In this document: positions 17,916 to 58,528 of the stretch, piece after piece
Position numbering within the stretch: position 1 is the stretch's first letter
How the letters are laid out: the number at the start of each line of letters is the position of its first letter
NCBI GenBank assembly: GCA_965223545.1
Contig: OZ245006.1
Coordinates: 960,001 to 1,024,000 of the forward strand
Source of the DNA: Planctomycetota bacterium
GTDB lineage: Bacteria; Planctomycetota; UBA1135; UBA2386
DNA length: 64,000 bases
Direction: 5' to 3'
The notes under the pieces: generated by a model
Told to the model about the DNA's origin: nothing
What the model saw: only the letters and a program-made list of their open reading frames with translations
Database searches by the model: none
Translations under genes and position numbers: made by a program

Positions 17916-17991
17916 GCCCCGTTCGTCTAGCGGCCTAGGATACATGGTTCTCATCCATGTGACACGGGTTCGAGTCCCGTACGGGGTACCA
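17916..17991 (+). tRNA. tRNA-Glu(CTC)
   Basis: Acceptor GCCCCGT/ACGGGGT plus ACCA; anticodon arm CATGG-TTCTCAT-CCATG; T-arm GGTTCGAGTCC; 76 nt. Confidence 0.97.
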
Positions 17992-26313: not shown

Positions 26314-26339
26314 CGGCTGTCGGGGCGCGCGAGGACCGT

Positions 26340-26780
26340 CGTCAGGCAGGCCACGCGCCTACCCGAGCCAAGACAATCTTGGGCGCACCGTCACTTGACT
26401 CGATCTGGCGGGCCTTGCTCAGGTGGCCCAGTTCTCGGTCGGGAATTCGCACAAGCCGAGCTCTCCCGCCGTCCTCCTCCAGGCACGCGATCCCCTTGGG
26501 GGATTTGGTTCCGCGCACAACATGTAGCCGTGAGCAAGATCTCGCCCCGCCGAACCTTTAGCGGGACCAAATCAGTCTACTCGTTCCAAGCTGCATGGCA
26601 TGTTCGCCCTCATTCTGCCTGGCGGGTGACAGCGGGGGAGATGCCGAGGGCGAGAACCTACCGGATCTCACGGCGACGGCTTGCTCGCTTCGACACGGTC
26701 GCCATCGTGGCGAACAACTCGAGCGTTTGCAGACGTGCTTGCCGGAACAGTTACGCCGGATGTGCGCCCCCGCAGGCTTC
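26340..26780 (-). pseudogene. Degraded IS256-family transposase remnant
   Basis: Frameshifted, stop-ridden segments KSPKGIACLEED, EFPTENW..HL and IES resemble IS256 KYPKAVACLEKD / DFPAEHWKHL / IES; upstream FRQARL, VLALG, W.E...L.RRG. Confidence 0.55.
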
Positions 26781-26828: not shown

Positions 26829-27737
26829 TTAACGAGTCACGAGATCGACCGCGGCCTGCAGCTCATGGGCAACGTAGCCCCACTCCGTGTACCCGGAGCT
26901 GATGAACCAATTGCAAACGGCACCCAAGAAAGCCACTTTCTCCGCGTGCATGGTCTTCCACGCCAGATCCGTTCTCGGCAGGCTATCGAACGCGCTATGC
27001 AAATAGACTTTCCCCTTATGGAGAATGTGACTGCGCCCAACAAGAGAGACCGCATGAGGCCGTTCACGCAATCGGTTTCGAATCTGGTCTACCGAACCCG
27101 GTCTCCCAAACTGTTTTCGAGCGTTGGCCAGGATCGTGGCATACTGATTCAGCCTTTCCTCGCTGGGTGCGGGTGGCTCGAACTCTTCCACCACTCCTTG
27201 CTCAATGTGTTCGATCATCTCACTCGACTTGGTTGTATGATAAGCGTCCACGAGCGGGCCGAGCTGCTGCTGGAATGTTACAACGATGTCCCGTAAAGCT
27301 GCGCGCTCGTCGGCGGCAATGACCGCCCCCGCGGGATTCAAATCGCGATGCCTCAGCAGCGATGTAACCTCTACAGCGTGAGGCGCGAAACAAAAGCGCT
27401 CCGCAAGGCTCCAATCCCTTTCGCGCAAGTCTTGTTGCCCTTGCTCGTTCCGATCCGCCATGCGTACTTCGATCGCTGACACGTCGGTCGCGTCATCGAC
27501 AGTAACGCTCCCGATCTCGGCCACCGGGTTCTGCGCGGCCTTGACTGGGTGACGATCCTTCGAGTCATCGTCCCCACGGGTCGCTCCCAGCCCGCTTCGC
27601 CCACCCGTGCCAGTGCCCTCCCATTGCCGCTCGAATCCATCAGATCTTTGCGAGCCGAGCAGCCAACCGGTAACGCCCACTATCAGGACACAAAGGAACG
27701 CGGCCAGCGCCTTGCGCCGATTCCTAAACATCAGCAA
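26829..27737 (-). CDS. Hypothetical N-terminally anchored protein (paralog A2)
   Basis: Single N-terminal TM; shares VE...L.RH..LNP....I...ER..L motif with 29337-30311. Confidence 0.8.
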   Translation of the reverse strand: MLMFRNRRKALAAFLCVLIVGVTGWLLGSQRSDGFERQWEGTGTGGRSGLGATRGDDDSKDRHPVKAAQNPVAEIGSVTVDDATDVSAIEVRMADRNEQGQQDLRERDWSLAERFCFAPHAVEVTSLLRHRDLNPAGAVIAADERAALRDIVVTFQQQLGPLVDAYHTTKSSEMIEHIEQGVVEEFEPPAPSEERLNQYATILANARKQFGRPGSVDQIRNRLRERPHAVSLVGRSHILHKGKVYLHSAFDSLPRTDLAWKTMHAEKVAFLGAVCNWFISSGYTEWGYVAHELQAAVDLVTR

Positions 27738-27843
27738 ACCCCCGACGTCGCACCATGTGTGGCGGAGACCGAGTGTGGCTCTTCATCCGCATCTGCGTAC
27801 TGCTCGCTCGAGTACTGAGCTGGGCGAGATCCTGGCTTTGACT

Positions 27844-28111
27844 CTAGCAGTTCGTACACCCAAGTGCCACACTGATGTCGCCTACATAGCTGGCCGCATT
27901 GCAAGGAGCCGAGGAGTACACCGACACCACGTCAACGCTCACCTTGTTGCATTCGGAGATCGCGGCGTTGTATTTGACGACAGCGTTCGTGCAAGTGAAA
28001 GAACCCGCCGCGCTCGTGAGCCGTGCCGTGCCCGTAGGCGTGAGTGTGATGGTACCCGTGTTGGAACAAGGCTCATCCACGATGCACAAGTGCTCGTGCG
28101 GCGACACACCC
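27844..28111 (-). pseudogene. 5'-truncated Cys-rich secreted protein (paralog B2)
   Basis: 7 Cys; GSFTC, SVYSSAPC and CTNC align with GTMTC, SVYTGAGC and CTELDC of 28671-29105. The 5' part is replaced by IS110 DNA. Confidence 0.65.
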
Positions 28112-28240
28112 AACGAGGAAGGGCAAGAAGCCCGCAGCGGAAGTATTGCCAGTCGTGAAGCCCAACGCCGCCGGAATCGACATCGGCAGCCGGGAGCACT
28201 GGGTGTGCGCGGCAGCACCCGAGGGTGAGTTTCAGGTCAG
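28112..28240 (+). mobile_element. Internally deleted IS110 remnant
   Basis: 28112-28222 is 109/111 identical to revcomp 54705-54815, joined to the IS right end GGGTGAGTTTCAGGTCAG (revcomp 53438-53455). Confidence 0.9.
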
Positions 28241-28268
28241 CTGCCCCATTCACGCCCTCCGCCTCTAG

Positions 28269-28580
28269 CCCAACTTCCGCAGTTCGACGGGTCGTCACGT
28301 TGAAGAATAACGACTTACGTCGATTGGTTAGCACCACATCGCAGTCGAACGGAGTGGTGCGGGGAGAGTCTCCTGGGTAGCTGGGTGTCGAGCCGGTCGA
28401 GCAAGTGCGCCTGCGCCTCGTTGGGGGTGAGCACGCAGCGGACCCGAAGCTCGCGGCCGTCAGAAGTGGGCAGGAGCTCGTCGGCGCTCTGGACCTGACG
28501 GAGTTCCTCGAGTGCGTCGTCGAACCTCAGTGCGTCAGTGCGTGCCACAGCGCTGCTTGCACTACCCGGTCGATCTGCGC
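28269..28580 (-). mobile_element. IS1634-family transposase 3' remnant with terminal repeat
   Basis: LEELRQVQSAD.LLPTSDGRELRVRCV...AQAHLLDRL..LPRRL; end sequence AACTGCGGAAGTTGGG. Confidence 0.7.
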
Positions 28581-28670
28581 CGCCGCGACGGTGGATAGCG
28601 GGCTGGCGCCGCGCCGAGGCCAAGAATTGGCCTCAGAAATGGCGGCGCACGTGCGTACCGGAACGGTCAA

Positions 28671-29105
28671 CTAGCAATCACCGCTGCAGTCCAACTCGGT
28701 GCAAACCGCGTCAATAACCATGATGCACCTGTCACCCGTGCAACCAGCTCCTGTGTACACCGACCCCGAAACTCCGTCCCAGCAACCGCAGCCGTAACAT
28801 TCCGCTTGCAGTTTCAGCGAACCGCCGTTGCAAGTCATGGTTCCGGCGAACTGGTGACTTGCCCCTGCGAGTGTGCGGCACGTGTGCGATCGGCACTGAA
28901 TGAACTCCTCACACTCGGAGCCAAGGCACCCGCAGGTTCCGTCCCACTCCAGTTCATCGCAGATCTGCGCTCCGCCAGCGGGACAAACTCCCTCGAGCCA
29001 GACAAGCGGAGTGCCTGGCTGGCACGCAACCCCCTCACATGGAGGCCCGGAATAGGTGCCGAGCATGAAGCTCAACGCCACGGCAAACAATCTTACGAAC
29101 GTCAT
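28671..29105 (-). CDS. Small secreted Cys-rich protein (paralog B1)
   Basis: AGGAGG RBS, signal peptide, 18 Cys in about 125 mature residues. Confidence 0.85.
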   Translation of the reverse strand: MTFVRLFAVALSFMLGTYSGPPCEGVACQPGTPLVWLEGVCPAGGAQICDELEWDGTCGCLGSECEEFIQCRSHTCRTLAGASHQFAGTMTCNGGSLKLQAECYGCGCWDGVSGSVYTGAGCTGDRCIMVIDAVCTELDCSGDC

Positions 29106-29336
29106 TCGCACCTCCTAGTCATGGTGATGGGGTTGGGTTTCGATAGGGCTAGCTTGGTTACTGGGCCCAGCTCTCCGCTCTGGGTTCTTTTCCTGGGATT
29201 GCGAGTCGTCCAACACGCTGCGACCGTAACGAGACCGACGCGCAAATATGATCATCTGAATTTGCGCAGCGCGCAGCGCGACGACGCACAATCTCTAGCA
29301 GATTCTGGGTGGTGGTTGCTCCAACATCGCAGACGG

Positions 29337-30311
29337 TCAATACTTGGCTCGCAACCTCTCACCAATTGCCGAAATGAAATCAACTCTGACAGCTTCAGGC
29401 AGCGCTGTTCGCGCAACAAAGAATGCGAGCAACATCGCAGATTGCTCAACAACGATATAGTCGCGAATCCCATATGCCTCCATTGTCAGAGGCATTTGCG
29501 TGAGTTCGGCTGCAAACACCTTGTCTCCACTGATCAACCATTTGGCCAGCTTCTTTCCAGGGAAGGCGATCTCTGGATCCTCGATTCGAGCCACCACGTT
29601 GACGGGAGGCGGAGGATTGGGCCCATCCAACTGCACACGCAGCTTCCGAGCAACCTCCTCTATCCTATCTCGGCGCTGCCGCAAACGCTCCGCTGCGGGA
29701 GCGGTAAGGGTCTGAACGTAGGATTCGTAGGATAACACATCTGCGTCGCTTACAAGCGATCTGCCGGAATCTATCAACGCCGAAAACTCTCGCTCGCTGA
29801 TGACTCTTCGAAGCTCGTCACACTTCCGCAGGAGATGCTGATACTTCTCTACGAGCAAGGTCAGGCCGTCACGCTCTGACGAAGGAATATATTGATCCTG
29901 GGGATTCAATAGGGTATGGCGGAAAAGCAAGTCGGGCTCCACCATCGCCGCGCGCCCATACAGGTAATCTGGAATCGAAAAGGTGGCCCGACGAAGAGCT
30001 TGCCATGCGTCATCCTTTTCCTCAGGCCCCATACCGGGCTTGCCGACAATGCCAGTATCGAGTGCGTTGCTGACATCGACGTTGCCGGTCTCTGTCGCGA
30101 GCGCGCTAATGGCCTGCCATTCTTCTGCCAACTCATCTCTCAGTCGGCGAGAGTCCTGCGCACTCAATGCTAGGGGCAACCCGCTGCCCTCCTCAACGCT
30201 CTGCTCAACCCGGTCCTCGGCGTTGCTACGTCGCAAAGCAGTCCATGTCCAGCCTCCAACAAACGCTGCGGCCAGTAGAACTGCCAGTCTCAAGACACTT
30301 GCTTTAGACAT
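29337..30311 (-). CDS. Hypothetical N-terminally anchored protein (paralog A1)
   Basis: 324 aa, N-terminal TM, LFRHTLLNP motif shared with 26829-27737. Confidence 0.8.
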   Translation of the reverse strand: MSKASVLRLAVLLAAAFVGGWTWTALRRSNAEDRVEQSVEEGSGLPLALSAQDSRRLRDELAEEWQAISALATETGNVDVSNALDTGIVGKPGMGPEEKDDAWQALRRATFSIPDYLYGRAAMVEPDLLFRHTLLNPQDQYIPSSERDGLTLLVEKYQHLLRKCDELRRVISEREFSALIDSGRSLVSDADVLSYESYVQTLTAPAAERLRQRRDRIEEVARKLRVQLDGPNPPPPVNVVARIEDPEIAFPGKKLAKWLISGDKVFAAELTQMPLTMEAYGIRDYIVVEQSAMLLAFFVARTALPEAVRVDFISAIGERLRAKY

Positions 30312-30636
30312 CTACACACTCTGGAAAATCGCGATCGACGAAAGCACATCGGCGAAAGCACGTTGGGGTCGCCCTTCGATTTCAAGATGAGGCCTTGCCG
30401 GTGACTGGGGCACGGATGCAGTGACGGGGCGACCTGAATCACGGGCTGGATAACTCACGGTGACGGATTCGGAGATCTTGAGAATGGAATCCCGAAGCGC
30501 CGCCTCTCCGATGAATTCTGGCGATCTCACTGGCTTATTGGCTAACAGGTTAAACTCTAGACGAGCAGTCTTGGCCGGTCTTTTTTTTTATCGGGGACTC
30601 TCGGTCGCAACCAGAGTAACGGGAGGTTGTTCGGAC

Positions 30637-31131
30637 ATGAAACCCGACCGTCGAGAACTTCCATGGCGCGTGTACGCAGAGGACTACCTTGCCCTCCTCG
30701 GGTTCGCGCGGGCTGCAGCCACTCACGCCGGCGAGGGGACCCGACTGGACCCCGGCGACATTCTCCACGAAGCCATTCGCCGACAGGTCGTGGCAAATCG
30801 CACATTCAAGGACAGGGAACACTGCATCGCTGCGCTGAGGACCGTGATGCGGTCGGTGTGTGCCAACGAGGCACGTCGACGACGGTTCGTCGGTGGCGAC
30901 GACGTCGCGCGCGTCGCTGGTCCCGACCCCTTCCCAGAATCAGCAGTTGCCGAAGCCCTGGCATGGTTACGCGATCGCGATGCTCGGCTCGCGCAGCTGG
31001 TGGAGCAGTGCCTTCGCACGGGCGAGAGACCCAGCGAAGCTGCGGGAGACATGGGTGTGGCGGCCTCTACTGCTCGGCACTGGTGGGCCCAGGCCCTGGC
31101 GGAGCTGCGGAAGCACTTCAGCGACCACTGA
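30637..31131 (+). CDS. ECF-type sigma factor (TIGR02999-like, divergent)
   Basis: GGAGG RBS; LDPGDILHEA, DREH..AALRTVMR..NEARRR, EALAWL..DARLAQLVE, EAA..MGV...T....W..A...L. Confidence 0.75.
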   Translation: MKPDRRELPWRVYAEDYLALLGFARAAATHAGEGTRLDPGDILHEAIRRQVVANRTFKDREHCIAALRTVMRSVCANEARRRRFVGGDDVARVAGPDPFPESAVAEALAWLRDRDARLAQLVEQCLRTGERPSEAAGDMGVAASTARHWWAQALAELRKHFSDH

Positions 31132-52700: not shown

Positions 52701-53384
<684 letters not shown>

Positions 53385-53449
53385 GCCGGGCTTCCGTGGC
53401 GCGCGGCCGATGCGGCGCGGATGTGATGCGTGGGAGCCTGACCTGAAAC

Positions 53450-54832
53450 TCACCCAGCCTCGGCGATCGGTATGAGCTTGTACCCGAGGGATTTAGCGTT
53501 CTGTCGGAGTCCGACGATGCGTCGCTGGGTGAAGCGCTCCTCGTAGGCCTTGGCGCCTTCGTCTACGTAGTCCTGGCCGAACTTCAGCATGCGGTAGATG
53601 AGCAGGGCCAGTTTGCGGGCGATGGCAAAGATGGCGACGTTGCCGTCCTTCGCGCGGGCGATCTTGCGGAAGTGTGCGCCGAGAGCTGTCTGAGTACGTT
53701 GGAGGGACAGGGCGGCCATCCGGAGGACCGTGGCGATCCTGCTGACCGCGATGTTGTTGCGGTGCTTCTTGATGCGCTTTCCACCCGAGACGGCTTGACG
53801 TGGGCACAGGCGTAGCCAGGAGACGAAGTGCTTCTCGGTCGGGAAAGCTTCGAGGTCGTAGCCGACCTCGGTGAGCACGATCATGGCCGTGCTCGGGCTG
53901 ATACCGTCGATTCGCGTGAGATCACACCCGACGAGCCGGCAGAGGGCATCGCGAAGCTCCCGGCCGCCCTTCGTTCGGATGCTCCTCTCCTTGCGGGGGT
54001 CTGGATGCTCGGGGACGTCGGCCGTCTTGGCTTCCTCCGGTTGCAGGTCCTCGATCATCGCCATCAATCGCTTCTCGACCGACTCGATCTCGTGGTCGGT
54101 GTGCTCGAGCATCCGCAAGCCCGAAGCGAGAGTGAAGATGTGCTCCTCGATCCAGGTCCCTTGCAAGTGATCCGCGAGCTCCTTCTCGGAGATCTTGCAG
54201 CGCGGATCACGCAGTCTGGCGAGCGCTCGAGGGTCGCGTTCACCAGCGAGAATCGCGCGGATGATCGCGAGGCCGGTCTTGCCGGTGATGTCCGTTACCG
54301 CGCGATGGATCGCCACGTTCATCTGATCCAGTGACCGCTGCATCAACTGCGTGTGGCGCGTGCGCTGCGCGATCAAAGACGCGGCATGGCGTTGCAGGGT
54401 CCGCAACGCACAGATGTCCTTCGGAGGCCGGAACGAAGCGCGAATGAGGCCATAGGTGTGTAGCTTCTGCAGCCAACTGCAATCGCTGGCATCGGACTTG
54501 GAGCGGCCCGGCACGTTCTTCACCTCGCGGGCATTCGCGAGGATGACCTCGAAGCCTCTCGACTCGAGTAGCTCGTAGACGGGAATCCAGTAGACATAGG
54601 TGCTCTCCATCGCGACGGATCGCACTCCGAGCTCCTCCAGCCAGTCCGCGAGCGCCTCTAGCTGGGGCGTCGTCGTTCCGAATCGCTTGATCGGACGACT
54701 GCCGTCGGGTGCTGCTGCGCACACCCAGTGCTCGCGGCTGCCGATGTCGATTCCGGCGGCGTTGGGCTTCACGACTGGCAATACTTCCGCTGCGGGCTTC
54801 TTGCCCTTCCTCGTTCTGCTCTTCCCAGCCAT
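53450..54832 (-). CDS. IS110-family transposase/recombinase
   Basis: DEDD residues in GIDIG, AMEST and KSDASD; IDGI; catalytic Ser region SGGK; AIARKLA. Confidence 0.95.
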   Translation of the reverse strand: MAGKSRTRKGKKPAAEVLPVVKPNAAGIDIGSREHWVCAAAPDGSRPIKRFGTTTPQLEALADWLEELGVRSVAMESTYVYWIPVYELLESRGFEVILANAREVKNVPGRSKSDASDCSWLQKLHTYGLIRASFRPPKDICALRTLQRHAASLIAQRTRHTQLMQRSLDQMNVAIHRAVTDITGKTGLAIIRAILAGERDPRALARLRDPRCKISEKELADHLQGTWIEEHIFTLASGLRMLEHTDHEIESVEKRLMAMIEDLQPEEAKTADVPEHPDPRKERSIRTKGGRELRDALCRLVGCDLTRIDGISPSTAMIVLTEVGYDLEAFPTEKHFVSWLRLCPRQAVSGGKRIKKHRNNIAVSRIATVLRMAALSLQRTQTALGAHFRKIARAKDGNVAIFAIARKLALLIYRMLKFGQDYVDEGAKAYEERFTQRRIVGLRQNAKSLGYKLIPIAEAG

Positions 54833-54854
54833 ACTTCATCCTCATTGTTGTGGT

Positions 54855-55007
54855 GGGCCCGGCCCGAGGCGGCGATCAAACGAATCTGACCTGCGGGAGT
54901 GGGCACGGCGACGTGCCCCTCACCAGTGAAGGATGGCCAACTCGGACCCAGACTGGCTCTGGGGCAAACGTGCTCCAGTGGCTATTGGGGGCGTAGCTGC
55001 CGGGCCC
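54855..55007 (-). ncRNA. Putative IS110 bridge/seek RNA
   Basis: Closed by a 9-bp stem (54855-54863 / 54999-55007); contains target- and donor-matching segments. Confidence 0.65.
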
Positions 55008-55083
55008 CTCACACGTTCCCCTCCCCCTTCCTCAGCGGCTAGTTTCCTGCCCTGAAGGGCCGACAAATCTGCCGGGGCAGGAC

Positions 55084-55115
55084 TGGCTCCGTACTTTCAT
55101 GGCTCCGTACTTTCA
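55084..55115. repeat. Perfect 16-bp tandem duplication TGGCTCCGTACTTTCA
   Basis: 55084-55099 equals 55100-55115. Confidence 0.9.
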
Positions 55116-55448
55116 GTATGGCGAGTCCAGCATCTGCCAGAGGATGTCCTCGACGTCGGGCTCGACCTTGCCGGTCAGCCGGGCGACGGGCTCGGCCTCG
55201 CCCTTGATGTGGGCGACGATGTCGGGCAGATCGGCTTCGGTGACTTCGCTGTAGAAGATCCGGTCGGGGTAGAGGGTGACGTTGACGGCGTGCTCGCAGC
55301 CGCCGAAGCAGGGGTAGCGCCGCAGCCGCACCCGCTCTTCGTCGGGGTCGATCTCCTGCAGCATCTCCTTGAGCTTGTCGTGCAAGTCGCCGGAACCGCG
55401 CTCGGTGCAGTCCCCACCTTCGCACACGTAGCAGAGTCGTTCGGTCAT
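55113..55448 (-). CDS. Thioredoxin-like [2Fe-2S] ferredoxin
   Basis: VCEGGDC...CFGGC..VTLYPD..Y..V; directly downstream of boxB. Confidence 0.85.
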   Translation of the reverse strand: MTERLCYVCEGGDCTERGSGDLHDKLKEMLQEIDPDEERVRLRRYPCFGGCEHAVNVTLYPDRIFYSEVTEADLPDIVAHIKGEAEPVARLTGKVEPDVEDILWQMLDSPY

Positions 55449-55482
55449 TGGGCTCGTGGGTGGCTAAAGCGCCGGTGCGCGA

Positions 55483-56898
55483 TCAGTGGAACTTGACGTA
55501 CTCGAACTCGAACGGCTGGTCGTTGACGCCGCGGGCGGGCGGCGCGATCCAGTTGGCGATCTTGCCGGGCTCGTGCACCTTGACCATGCACGCCTTGACG
55601 TAGTCGCGATCGGCCTGGCTCGGCAGCCACTGCTCGATCCCCTTGGCGAACGCCTCGGCGCTGATCGGCTCGCCCTGTGGGTTGAAGTGGTGGCCGGCGT
55701 AGATGCCCTGCTGGCGGTTGAAGCGCTGGCTCGGCAGGGTGACCACCGCGTCGAGGTCGAGCCGCTTGAGGTCGCGGTTCCAGCGGTCGACGATCCGCTT
55801 GCAGTCGGCGACGTAGTTGTCCAAGAGCAGCGCGTTCATCGCCCGGCGCAGCGGGATCTCGCGCTCGACCAGGCGGCCGTCCTCGGGCACCACGGTCTTG
55901 TAGTTGGCCTGCAGCGCGGTCGGGTCCTTGTAGACACCGTCGCCCTCGCGATAGCGGCCCTTGAGGCCCGAGGCGAACGACTCGGCGGCGTTGGTCGAGT
56001 CCTCGCCGCCAAACAGGTCCATCGACGCCGACGCCCAGTAGTTGATGTAGCGCTGCACGATGTCGAGCGGGATCGCGCCCTGGCTGCGCGGGTCGACGCC
56101 GTCGCGCATCAGCTCGGCGGCGCGCTTGATGATGCGACCGATGCCGTTCTCACCGGTCTGCATGTGGAACGCCTCCTCCGCCAGCATGAACTGCGTGGTG
56201 CGGGCGAGGGGGTCGAAGCTGCTCTCGGCCAAAGCCGCCAGCTGGTACTTGCCGTCGCGGTCGGTGAACGTCGTGAAGGCGAAGAAGTCGAGCCAGGTCT
56301 CGATCGGGTTGTTGAACGCCTGCAGGATCCGCGGGTGGTCCTCGTTGCCGCTGCGGCGCTCGAGCAGCGCCTCGGCCTCATCGCGGCCGTCCGCGCCGAA
56401 GTGCGTGTGCAGCAGGTAGACCATCGCCCACAGGTGGCGCCCCTCCTCGACGTTGACCTGGAACACGTTGCGCAGGTCGTAGAGCGACGGCGCGGTGTGG
56501 CCGAGCAAACGCTGCTGCTCGACCGACGCGGGCTCGGTGTCGCCTTGCGTGACGATCAACCGGCGCAGGCGGTTGCGCATCTCGCCCGGCACCTCGTCCC
56601 ACACCGGCTCACCGATCGAGTCGCCGAAATGGATCTTGCGGTCCTCGACCGCGTCGGCGAGGAAGATGCCCCACCGATAGTCCGGCATCTTGACGTAGTC
56701 GTAGTGCGCCCAGCCGCCCTTGCCGACGCCGATCGCCGTGCGCAGATAGATCTGGTCCTGCTTGAAGTCGCTCGGCCCCATCTCGTTCCACCAGTCGAGA
56801 TAGCTCGGCTGCCACTTCTCGAGCGCGCGGCACAGCCGCTTGTTCTCGCGCAGGTTGACGTTGTTGGGGATCTTGGCTTCCAGGTCGACGGCGCTCAT
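55483..56898 (-). CDS. boxB: Benzoyl-CoA 2,3-epoxidase diiron subunit
   Basis: KIPNNVNL, VKMPDYRWGI, QGDTEPASVEQQR, VEEGRHLWAM, DRDGKYQL, EEAFHM. Confidence 0.96.
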   Translation of the reverse strand: MSAVDLEAKIPNNVNLRENKRLCRALEKWQPSYLDWWNEMGPSDFKQDQIYLRTAIGVGKGGWAHYDYVKMPDYRWGIFLADAVEDRKIHFGDSIGEPVWDEVPGEMRNRLRRLIVTQGDTEPASVEQQRLLGHTAPSLYDLRNVFQVNVEEGRHLWAMVYLLHTHFGADGRDEAEALLERRSGNEDHPRILQAFNNPIETWLDFFAFTTFTDRDGKYQLAALAESSFDPLARTTQFMLAEEAFHMQTGENGIGRIIKRAAELMRDGVDPRSQGAIPLDIVQRYINYWASASMDLFGGEDSTNAAESFASGLKGRYREGDGVYKDPTALQANYKTVVPEDGRLVEREIPLRRAMNALLLDNYVADCKRIVDRWNRDLKRLDLDAVVTLPSQRFNRQQGIYAGHHFNPQGEPISAEAFAKGIEQWLPSQADRDYVKACMVKVHEPGKIANWIAPPARGVNDQPFEFEYVKFH

Positions 56899-56899
56899 C

Positions 56900-58528
56900 T
56901 CAGGTCCTCTTCCAATCGAATCGGGCGGTCTCGGGCTTGCCGTAGCACACCAGCGCGCCGTCCTCGCCGACGGCGTTGGGACGGCTGAATATCCAGTTCT
57001 GCCAGGCGGTCAGCCGGCCGAAGATCTTCGAATCGCAGGTCTCGCCGCCGGCGAAGCGCAGCGAGGCCTCCATGCCGGTCAGCGCATCCGGACTGAGCGA
57101 GGCGCGCTCCTCGATGGCGATGCGCACCTCGTCCTCCCAGTCGATGTCGTCGGCGAGCACGGTGACCAACCCCAGCTCGTCGGCACCGGCCGCGTCGACG
57201 CGCGGCCGCTCGGCGGCGAGCTGCGCGGCGCGCTCGGGCTCGGCCAAGAAGCGGCTCTGCAGGCGCGTGAGGCCATTGCTCATCGGCAGCGCGCCGGCAC
57301 TGAGCGGCCCAACGGCGAAGTGCACCGGGTGGTCGGGGTCGTCGAGCGCGTAGACCCGGTCGCCGGCCAACGCCAGCTCCAAGAACAGGCCGGCCATGCA
57401 GCTCTCGGCGTCGGCGATCGCGAAGAAGCTGCGCGCGGTGAGCTCGTAGCGGCGCGCCACCCGGGCCCACAGCAGCAGGATCTCGTTGCACAACCAGTGG
57501 TCGCGGTTGTCCAGCAGCGTCTGCTCGACGGCAAGCAGCGCGTCGATGTCGCCGCGCGGGTGCAGCAACACCAAGCCGTGCTCCTGATAGCCGAAGCGAA
57601 GCTGGCACAGCGCGTCGTCGAGCTCGCGGGCGAACTGCAGCGCCCAGCTTCGATCGCCGGCGGCGAGGTAGGCGGCGCCGTCCGCGGGCTGCTCACCCGT
57701 CGGGCCGCGCACCTCCAGCCGCACGGTGCGGCCATCGGCGTCGAAGCGCAGCGCCACGTGCTCGTACTCGAGACCATCCTCGGTCTGCTTCGGCCGGATC
57801 GGTGACAGCTCGATGCCCGACTCCGCCCGCACCGGGTGCTCTGCGGCGAGCGCGGTGGCGCGCTGGGCGACGCCCTCGTCGAACTTGGAGCGCGGCCAGA
57901 AGCCGTCGATCAAACCCCACTGCACCGCGCGCTTGCCCTTGACGCCCTCGGCCAGCGTCGAGAACACGTCGGCGCGGTCGCGGCGGATCTTGCGCTTGTC
58001 GACCAGCCGCGTCAGCCCCCCGGTGCCCGGCAGCACGCCGAGCAGCGAGACCTCGGGCAGGGACACCGCGCTGTTGCCGTCCTCGATGAGGTAGATCTCA
58101 TCGCAGGCGATGGCCAGCTCGTAGCCGCCGCCCGCGCACGGGCCGTTGAGCGCGGCGATGAACTTCACCCCCGAGTGCCGGCTGGCGTCCTCGATGCCGC
58201 AGCGCGTCTCGTTGGTGAACTTGCAGAAGTTGACTTTGAACGGGTGCGGCGAGCTCGCCAGCATGTTGATGTTGGCACCGGCACAGAACACGCGGTCGGT
58301 GTCGCTGGTGACCACCACCGTGTTGACCTCGGGGTGCTCGAAGCGGATCCGCTGGATCGCGTCCGCCAGCTCGAGGTCGACGCCGAGGTCGTACGAGTTC
58401 AGCTTGAGCTCGTAGCCGTCGCCGTAGGGGTGGGACGGGTCGACGGCCATCGCCAGTCTGGCGATCGGACCGTCGAAGCTCAGGTTCCAGTGGTGGTACT
58501 GATCGGGATGCCGGTTGAGATCGATCAT
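56900..58528 (-). CDS. boxC: 2,3-epoxybenzoyl-CoA dihydrolase
   Basis: KLNSYDLGVD, QRIRFEHPEV, KVNFCKFTNETR, PDALTGMEA, GRLTAWQNWIF. Confidence 0.95.
   Translation of the reverse strand: MIDLNRHPDQYHHWNLSFDGPIARLAMAVDPSHPYGDGYELKLNSYDLGVDLELADAIQRIRFEHPEVNTVVVTSDTDRVFCAGANINMLASSPHPFKVNFCKFTNETRCGIEDASRHSGVKFIAALNGPCAGGGYELAIACDEIYLIEDGNSAVSLPEVSLLGVLPGTGGLTRLVDKRKIRRDRADVFSTLAEGVKGKRAVQWGLIDGFWPRSKFDEGVAQRATALAAEHPVRAESGIELSPIRPKQTEDGLEYEHVALRFDADGRTVRLEVRGPTGEQPADGAAYLAAGDRSWALQFARELDDALCQLRFGYQEHGLVLLHPRGDIDALLAVEQTLLDNRDHWLCNEILLLWARVARRYELTARSFFAIADAESCMAGLFLELALAGDRVYALDDPDHPVHFAVGPLSAGALPMSNGLTRLQSRFLAEPERAAQLAAERPRVDAAGADELGLVTVLADDIDWEDEVRIAIEERASLSPDALTGMEASLRFAGGETCDSKIFGRLTAWQNWIFSRPNAVGEDGALVCYGKPETARFDWKRT

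Follow-up and report, generated by a model that had tools for sequence, protein, structure and literature searches.

A diversified two-gene module of Planctomycetota, pairing a membrane-anchored protein with a cysteine-rich exported protein: a candidate toxin and immunity system

Secreted bacteriocins and effectors acting in the periplasm combine an exported small protein with an adjacent, envelope-anchored immunity partner. The lipase-specific foldase Lif (LipH) has an inner-membrane anchor, a flexible linker and a helical domain, and its secreted cognate protein is encoded next to it. Disulfide-dense secreted toxins are thought of mostly as eukaryotic. In polymorphic toxin cassettes, as described in PMC3482391, the toxin gene comes first, and the occurrence of C-terminal toxin tips as stand-alone cassettes is given there as a hallmark of such systems. 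For extracytoplasmic function (ECF) sigma factors, C-terminal extensions are named as the second commonest regulatory mode in PMC7826278. Here, we analyzed a 64,000-nucleotide (nt) window (the whole stretch of DNA studied; contig OZ245006.1, positions 960,001 to 1,024,000) from a Planctomycetota bacterium, whose positions 26,829-30,311 carry two copies of a gene pair. Gene A codes for an anchored protein with an RHxxLNP motif, and gene B for an exported protein rich in cysteine (Cys). One pair, A1-B1, is intact; in the other, an intact A2 lies beside the remnant B2. A and B are probably an undescribed module, with a probable function that we infer from sequence. A full-text literature search found no description of the pair, in a comparison outside which stand the supplementary ECF-group and toxin/immunity family lists of PMC7826278 and PMC3482391, which could bear on novelty.

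Sequence and gene order together indicate that A and B form a real two-gene module distributed across Planctomycetota. Among 112 A genes with at least 900 nt of flanking sequence, 65 had a same-strand B neighbor and 47 were orphans, and over all loci 74 of 135 A genes had a same-strand B, located downstream in 38 and upstream in 36. B was almost never found by itself: 75 of 78 unique B genes lay beside an A, two were the second B in an A-B-B array, and one (L061) was beside an anchored A-like gene. By profile, 77 of these 78 fell inside an A locus. Arrays of one A followed by two B genes were seen at L013, L131, L142 and L165. Because most loci had been fetched through A, held-out tests were run. 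Seven of eight new B matches adjoined A, and the eighth had an anchored A-like neighbor. In other, distant families, 10 of 17 true new A matches adjoined B (eight by an untrained profile, two by a generic Cys rule), against a background of 47 such open reading frames (ORFs) in 8.1 Mb (approximately 0.02 per 3.4 kb) and 3 of 83 control loci. Six further loci reached through B (L296, L326-L329 and L331) all adjoined an anchored gene, with profile support above shuffles in four. A preliminary description of the window had suggested a diversifying cognate pair and proposed to check the co-occurrence of both profiles across Planctomycetota genomes; the strong linkage, including the 65 of 112 A genes adjoining a Cys-rich B, and the held-out tests support this suggestion.

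Decay of the module was one-sided. Among 72 A/B pairs located off contig edges, B was broken and A intact in 14, A was broken and B intact in one, and both were broken in two (binomial P 3.8e-6 when weighted by length, A being about twice as long, and 4.9e-4 against 50:50). Breaks were flagged by a heuristic; 16 flagged or suspected genes were read in three frames, and L079 was removed as a false call. The 14 broken B genes, B2 included, carried stops, frameshifts, deletions and four insertion sequence (IS) insertions. Assembly errors should strike A more often and therefore do not explain the direction of decay. Most orphan A genes were intact, and they were flagged broken more often than paired ones (12 of 47 by crude flags vs 3 of 72). 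This would be expected of a toxin and its immunity protein, because protection is vital beside a live B and optional afterwards. In two genomes (L118 and L160), a similar IS-like sequence replaces the 5' part of B, and an IS256-family transposase gene lies beside L118.

We also detected a B domain at the tip of an Rhs-like protein. It forms the last 217 residues of a 2172-residue protein with a signal peptide in genome G234, directly after a match to the Rhs core (TIGR03696, E 2.7e-4). The tip scored 31.8 bits on an untrained B profile over profile positions 34-149, within which the invariant cysteines were aligned; none of 500 shuffles reached this score (best 11.0), and the reversed sequence scored 3.1. 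One of its two nearest outside matches was a stand-alone B beside an anchored A-like gene. G234 has an A/B pair elsewhere in its genome, and no Rhs core was found in the genome of the window. The divergent Rhs-like protein (L325:3-9375), which has no Pfam match, is encoded next to a GspD-like secretin gene, and it is itself followed by an unknown 153-residue exported protein. In addition, some other Rhs tips (L334, L353, L360 and L388) are Cys-rich yet without a match to the B profile.

Family A is large and diverse. A profile search yielded 523 clusters at 50% identity, 384 of them at E 1e-10, and two of ten clusters looked up were named 'hypothetical protein, Planctomycetota bacterium'. False SppA matches (L278-L280), L172, many weak matches to the N-terminal part only, and L394 were left out. 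In a distribution survey that covered Planctomycetota, A was present in 38 of 74 genomes of the window's family vs 5 of 226 from other families of the class. A shorter subfamily with an LNP...FF end reaches other Planctomycetota families (16 of 301 genomes, a count that includes three false SppA matches and several training members). Conserved positions of A are W, R, RHxxLNPxD, E, G, P and WF, with no conserved Cys, and a hydrophobic anchor precedes the core in 100 of 112 members; one variant (L396) has a lipoprotein-like start. B proteins have a signal peptide and mostly 8-14 Cys within the last 125 residues, and apart from Cys they conserve solely Gly and one Pro. On average, two A proteins share 17% identity and two B proteins 21%. 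In one 642-residue ORF (L101:2597-4522), the A core occupies the C-terminus, and the middle part looks redoxin-like by eye, with no Pfam match at 1e-8.

The preliminary description had recognized neither family, and we found no characterized match in Pfam, NCBIfam or the PDB. Thirty A members, with foldase families included in the search, and 20 B members gave no Pfam match; NCBIfam had none for A1, A2 or B1, and PDB sequences had none below E 0.6 for A or B. A scan of genome contigs with A1 found nothing, and word-indexed homolog searches were insensitive (2, 4 and 3 matches). The model of the A1 core had a predicted local distance difference test (pLDDT) score of 91 and a predicted template modeling (pTM) score of 0.80. 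In the predicted fold, the RHxxLNP cap is followed by two long helices, one of 39 residues and one of 29 residues leading back, which would form an antiparallel coiled coil. Between them lies a variable alpha/beta insertion with a beta-hairpin at its tip, and a short helix ends the chain. The B1 model (pLDDT 74, moderate) has seven predicted strands. Foldseek gave no PDB match at E 0.001 for either model; for B there was also none in BFVD, and for B1 no usable match in the ESM Atlas. In the VIA structural comparison, the best score for A was Z 6.0 in a second look and Z 7.5 in a wide run over 48,161 chains (a FAT domain; root-mean-square deviation (rmsd) 4.2, 111 residues aligned), with none at 8 or above. 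For B, whose query model is of the above moderate quality, the wide run over the same number of chains gave a best Z of 3.4 and none of at least 5. Several pore-forming and secretin beta sheets, as well as Cry37Aa1 (Z 3.3), were on the weak list for B and were not used as evidence. Thus, the predicted folds of A and B both apparently lack a match, which does not prove that they are new.

In the window, both modules lie in a 4.5-kb island of 55-63% guanine plus cytosine (GC) compared to approximately 72% for the window as a whole, bordered by a cytochrome c gene on one side and by the following gene of high GC on the other. GC content at third codon positions is 0.59-0.73 in island genes and 0.85-0.93 in flanking genes. 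The minus-strand order is A1, B1, IS debris, B2 and A2, with all four reading frames where the preliminary description had placed them; that description was incomplete, having overlooked the low-GC island and a divergent ECF sigma factor gene. The features are as follows.

30637..31131, plus strand: ECF sigma factor gene, divergent from A1 (PF07638, E 1.7e-5); possible alternative start GTG at 30460
29337..30311, minus strand: A1, 324 residues; N-terminal membrane anchor, linker and predicted domain of approximately 230 residues; candidate immunity protein
28671..29105, minus strand: B1, intact, 144 residues, secreted, 18 Cys, predicted all-beta; candidate toxin
28223..28640, strand not given: IS remnant with both ends and a deleted middle; 8 full copies elsewhere in the genome (blastn, tblastn)
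28112..28225, strand not given: end of an IS110-type element, of which the genome has 23 other copies; stands in place of the 5' part of B2
27844..28111, minus strand: B2, 88-residue 3' remnant of a B gene, 7 Cys, lacking start codon and signal peptide (pseudogene)
26829..27731, minus strand: A2, intact A-family protein of 300 residues adjoining its broken B partner
26643..26756, strand not given: end of an IS66-type element with 8 other copies; downstream edge of the island

A2 has 300 residues when read from ATG at 27731 and 302 from TTG at 27737. The B1 gene is preceded by an AGGAGG ribosome-binding site, and the signal peptide and 18 Cys reported earlier for its product were confirmed in the 144-residue protein. 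Contigs from sequencing run X1 agree with the region, with zero differences in its unique parts. Run X4, of which 66% was read, was identical over A1, B1 and the ECF gene and had no coverage over A2/B2, where it is uninformative. One end of the IS that left the remnant at 28223-28640 truncates another B gene of this genome as well (C1:6913.5 kb, L134). At the island edge, approximately 180 nt (window 26331-26508) are 71% similar to C1:2347944-2348137. The IS110-type element that cuts into B2 with its end is present as a full copy in a second stretch of lower GC (window 53001-57000). A tRNA-Glu(CTC) gene (window 17916-17991) does not mark the island edge, being approximately 9 kb away. Genes next to A/B loci in general vary, and transposases are frequent among them; a scan of 76 of 143 candidate ORFs revealed no recurring secretion system, pilus, S-layer, ABC exporter, lysis or type VI gene. 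In three genomes (L122, L128 and L156), A/B cassettes lie directly after flhA-flhF(-flhG), a possible insertion hotspot, and the one at L128 is placed between flhG and a FliA-type sigma factor gene.

A1 and A2 had been called distant paralogs, and this holds: they match by BLASTP with E 1e-5 (28% identity over 156 residues), are 19-22% identical in family alignments, and the C-terminal motifs quoted for them align there. The kinship proposed for B1 and B2 was not significant in a pairwise alignment (E 0.079) and was recovered by leave-one-out profiles, which gave 37.1 bits for B1 and 31.2 bits for B2, scores reached by none of 200 composition-preserving shuffles. In this test, 16 of 16 members examined were recovered above all 200 shuffles, and B1 and B2 are assigned to one family on this basis. 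The view of the locus as a two-gene module present twice stands for positions and order. However, B2 is an IS-cut remnant of 88 residues without a start and not a gene, and the two modules, whose A proteins are as distant as the above 19-22% identity shows, are not a recent duplication and have opposite order (A1-B1, B2-A2). The genome contains seven A genes: A1, A2, C1:4090344 (57% identical to A1), C1:2080694, C1:2547505, C1:6914037 and a distant one at C1:1083.4 kb, which is weak on profiles excluding it (E 0.01). Five of the seven have a B neighbor; in three of these pairs B is broken and A intact, and the other two B genes are unbroken.

We propose, giving the idea an even chance of being right, that B is a secreted, disulfide-locked antibacterial toxin acting on the envelopes of rivals and that A is a periplasmic immunity protein. 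Three functions had been offered previously: toxin and immunity, ligand and receptor, or a disulfide-rich peptide with its chaperone. The first appears to fit best, because A often occurs without B and B hardly ever without A, decay runs 14:1 against B and one B domain forms an Rhs tip; the others are carried below as rivals. The observed export signals, linkage, decay pattern and fusions suggest the following mechanism, in which binding, toxicity, target and ECF regulation are conjectural. B would be exported by Sec, oxidized in the periplasm, and then released or passed to neighbors. There, it would harm the periplasm or inner membrane of cells without a matching A, by binding or membrane damage and not by catalysis, since its conservation is limited to Cys, Gly and one Pro. 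The flexible linker would tether A in the periplasm, where A would capture its own B, probably via the variable tip and the coiled coil. Foreign A/B cassettes may be collected as low-GC islets, in which loss of B is tolerated and loss of A beside a live B is not; orphan A genes would therefore be retained immunity, slowly decaying. The divergent ECF sigma factor may drive three cassettes in this genome.

Several observations weigh against a toxin and its immunity protein. Gene order is free (38 downstream, 36 upstream), unlike a fixed order of toxin then immunity. B has neither a conserved catalytic residue nor, for its model of pLDDT 74, a fold match to a toxin (best Z 3.4). Distances within A and B co-vary only weakly (Mantel rho 0.106, with 5 of 999 permutations as high; the close duplicate L143 was excluded), and for two of the six loci reached through B (L327 and L328), the partner did not beat shuffles on an A profile lacking it. 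The decay count is inflated by ascertainment through A and by kinship, intactness of A is heuristic and the genomes are assemblies. The Rhs link concerns a single protein, which falls short of the family cut-off in its core match. Its tip reached a probability of 1.6% when compared with the B alignment by hhalign, the gene that follows is not A, and in 60 other Rhs loci neither B nor A was matched. Finally, A is fused behind an ECF sigma factor in 4 of 110 A entries (L017, L104, L109 and L103, the last apparently degenerate), usually with a membrane helix in between, an arrangement that suits a sensor.

These fusions imply that A can serve as an outside-facing domain, which supports a binding role and keeps a receptor function alive. 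B might be a secreted identity or signaling ligand and A its cognate periplasmic receptor, signaling to ECF sigma factors directly when fused and otherwise via an unknown partner, with orphan A proteins as eavesdroppers; we consider this unlikely. Apart from the fusions, in which the A domain forms the outside part, it is favored by the genomic setting of the ECF gene in the window (TIGR02999 E 2.7e-9, below cut-off): its two closest paralogs (tblastn E 1.7e-17 and 7e-17) likewise face A/B loci, so that at three A/B loci of this genome the facing ECF genes are one another's closest paralogs. One-sided decay would also result if a ligand were lost and its receptor kept, but a signal role leaves the rarity of broken A beside intact B unexplained. 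Moreover, only 19 of 110 A entries are near or fused to any sigma-like gene (of the FliA type at L128), and thus ECF adjacency, a feature of anti-sigma factors, is not conserved. With approximately 7 residues ahead of its anchor, A1 is too short there for a classical anti-sigma domain that would bind sigma in the cytoplasm. The A model overlays nearly all of the anchored periplasmic sensor CnrX (2y39; Z 5.9, rmsd 4.3, 107 of 110 residues), yet this match ranks 33rd, among generic helical bundles, and is within the noise of helical models. Homology of A to Spy/CnrX was not supported: none of 30 core members matched PF13801 or PF07813 at E 0.5, the match of full-length A1 (E 0.65) was confined to the N-terminal part, and probabilities in hhalign comparisons with 11 Metal_resist members did not exceed 14%. 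Separately, the first long helix of several Metal_resist (PF13801) proteins of this order (L253-L262) carries an unusual cluster of Cys, which suggests that they sense metals.

Alternatively, A could be a dedicated foldase or maturation factor tethered to the inner membrane, similar to Lif, and B the disulfide-rich client that it matures and that would serve in adhesion or structure outside the cell. The anchor, long linker and helical domain beside a secreted client reproduce the Lif layout, B is almost never without an A-like neighbor, and the more frequent breaks among orphan A genes (12 of 47 vs 3 of 72 paired) would also fit. However, breaks should then favor the longer A, and the observed 14:1 is opposite unless unfolded B is itself harmful. 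Approximately 40% of A genes stand alone, mostly intact, A has no conserved Cys, and the B domain on the Rhs-like protein has no adjoining A, although that genome has an A/B pair elsewhere; together, we judge a foldase function rather improbable. Export of both proteins, their hypervariability (17% and 21% mean identity) and their location in low-GC islets would also be consistent with two subunits of a variable surface or envelope structure, e.g., a decoy facing phages or grazers, with no toxicity or signaling. This we consider very improbable: no pilus, secretion or S-layer gene is consistently nearby, and intact orphan A genes would not be expected in such numbers if the two proteins had to form a heterodimer.

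If B is indeed a toxin and A its immunity protein, a broader but doubtful picture can be drawn. Uncultured Planctomycetota might fight conflicts among kin with a large and hitherto unseen set of venom-like beta proteins that are locked by disulfides and have a new fold. Each would have a cognate, membrane-tethered coiled-coil binder of another new fold. This binder would also have been coupled to ECF sigma factors to sense attacks, and the toxin domain loaded onto Rhs carriers. Hundreds of cognate pairs at approximately 20% identity would then provide a large natural collection of stable mini-protein scaffolds, each supplied with its matched binder; their action would be a new envelope-directed antibacterial mechanism, and the module would open a first way to study how large lineages of uncultured planctomycetes compete or recognize themselves. 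B1 and A1 form an intact pair that is small enough for direct testing.

Comparison with known systems places the module near several of them. CnrX, Spy, CpxP and ZraP share with A a membrane anchor and, at some loci, an ECF neighbor, and A may also have their periplasmic hairpin of long helices flanked by short ones. Unlike these proteins, A has a large alpha/beta insertion and an RHxxLNP cap, and it lacks conserved metal ligands and a significant profile match. The difference from Lif is that A has no foldase match in Pfam and no lipase family as neighbor (30 A and 20 B members), that its client would be a small disulfide-rich beta protein, and that A persists without a client. With polymorphic toxin systems, as described in PMC3482391, A/B shares diversified two-gene cassettes at variable low-GC sites and surplus retained partner genes, and perhaps also the placement at an Rhs C-terminus, seen for one B domain. 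On the other hand, B usually carries a signal peptide of its own and lacks a delivery domain, the genes occur in either order, B has no recognizable catalytic motif, and searches of Pfam and NCBIfam linked neither A nor B to any toxin or immunity family listed there. A/B would act in the manner of such cassettes or of bacteriocins with tethered immunity. Because the order is not fixed and no described family is matched in the libraries searched, we do not assign A/B to the polymorphic toxins. Bacteriocins with tethered immunity differ in that B is a disulfide-dense, predicted beta protein without a sequence or fold match; what A/B has in common with them is an exported small protein and an adjoining anchored partner, which in the L396 variant of A is lipoprotein-like.

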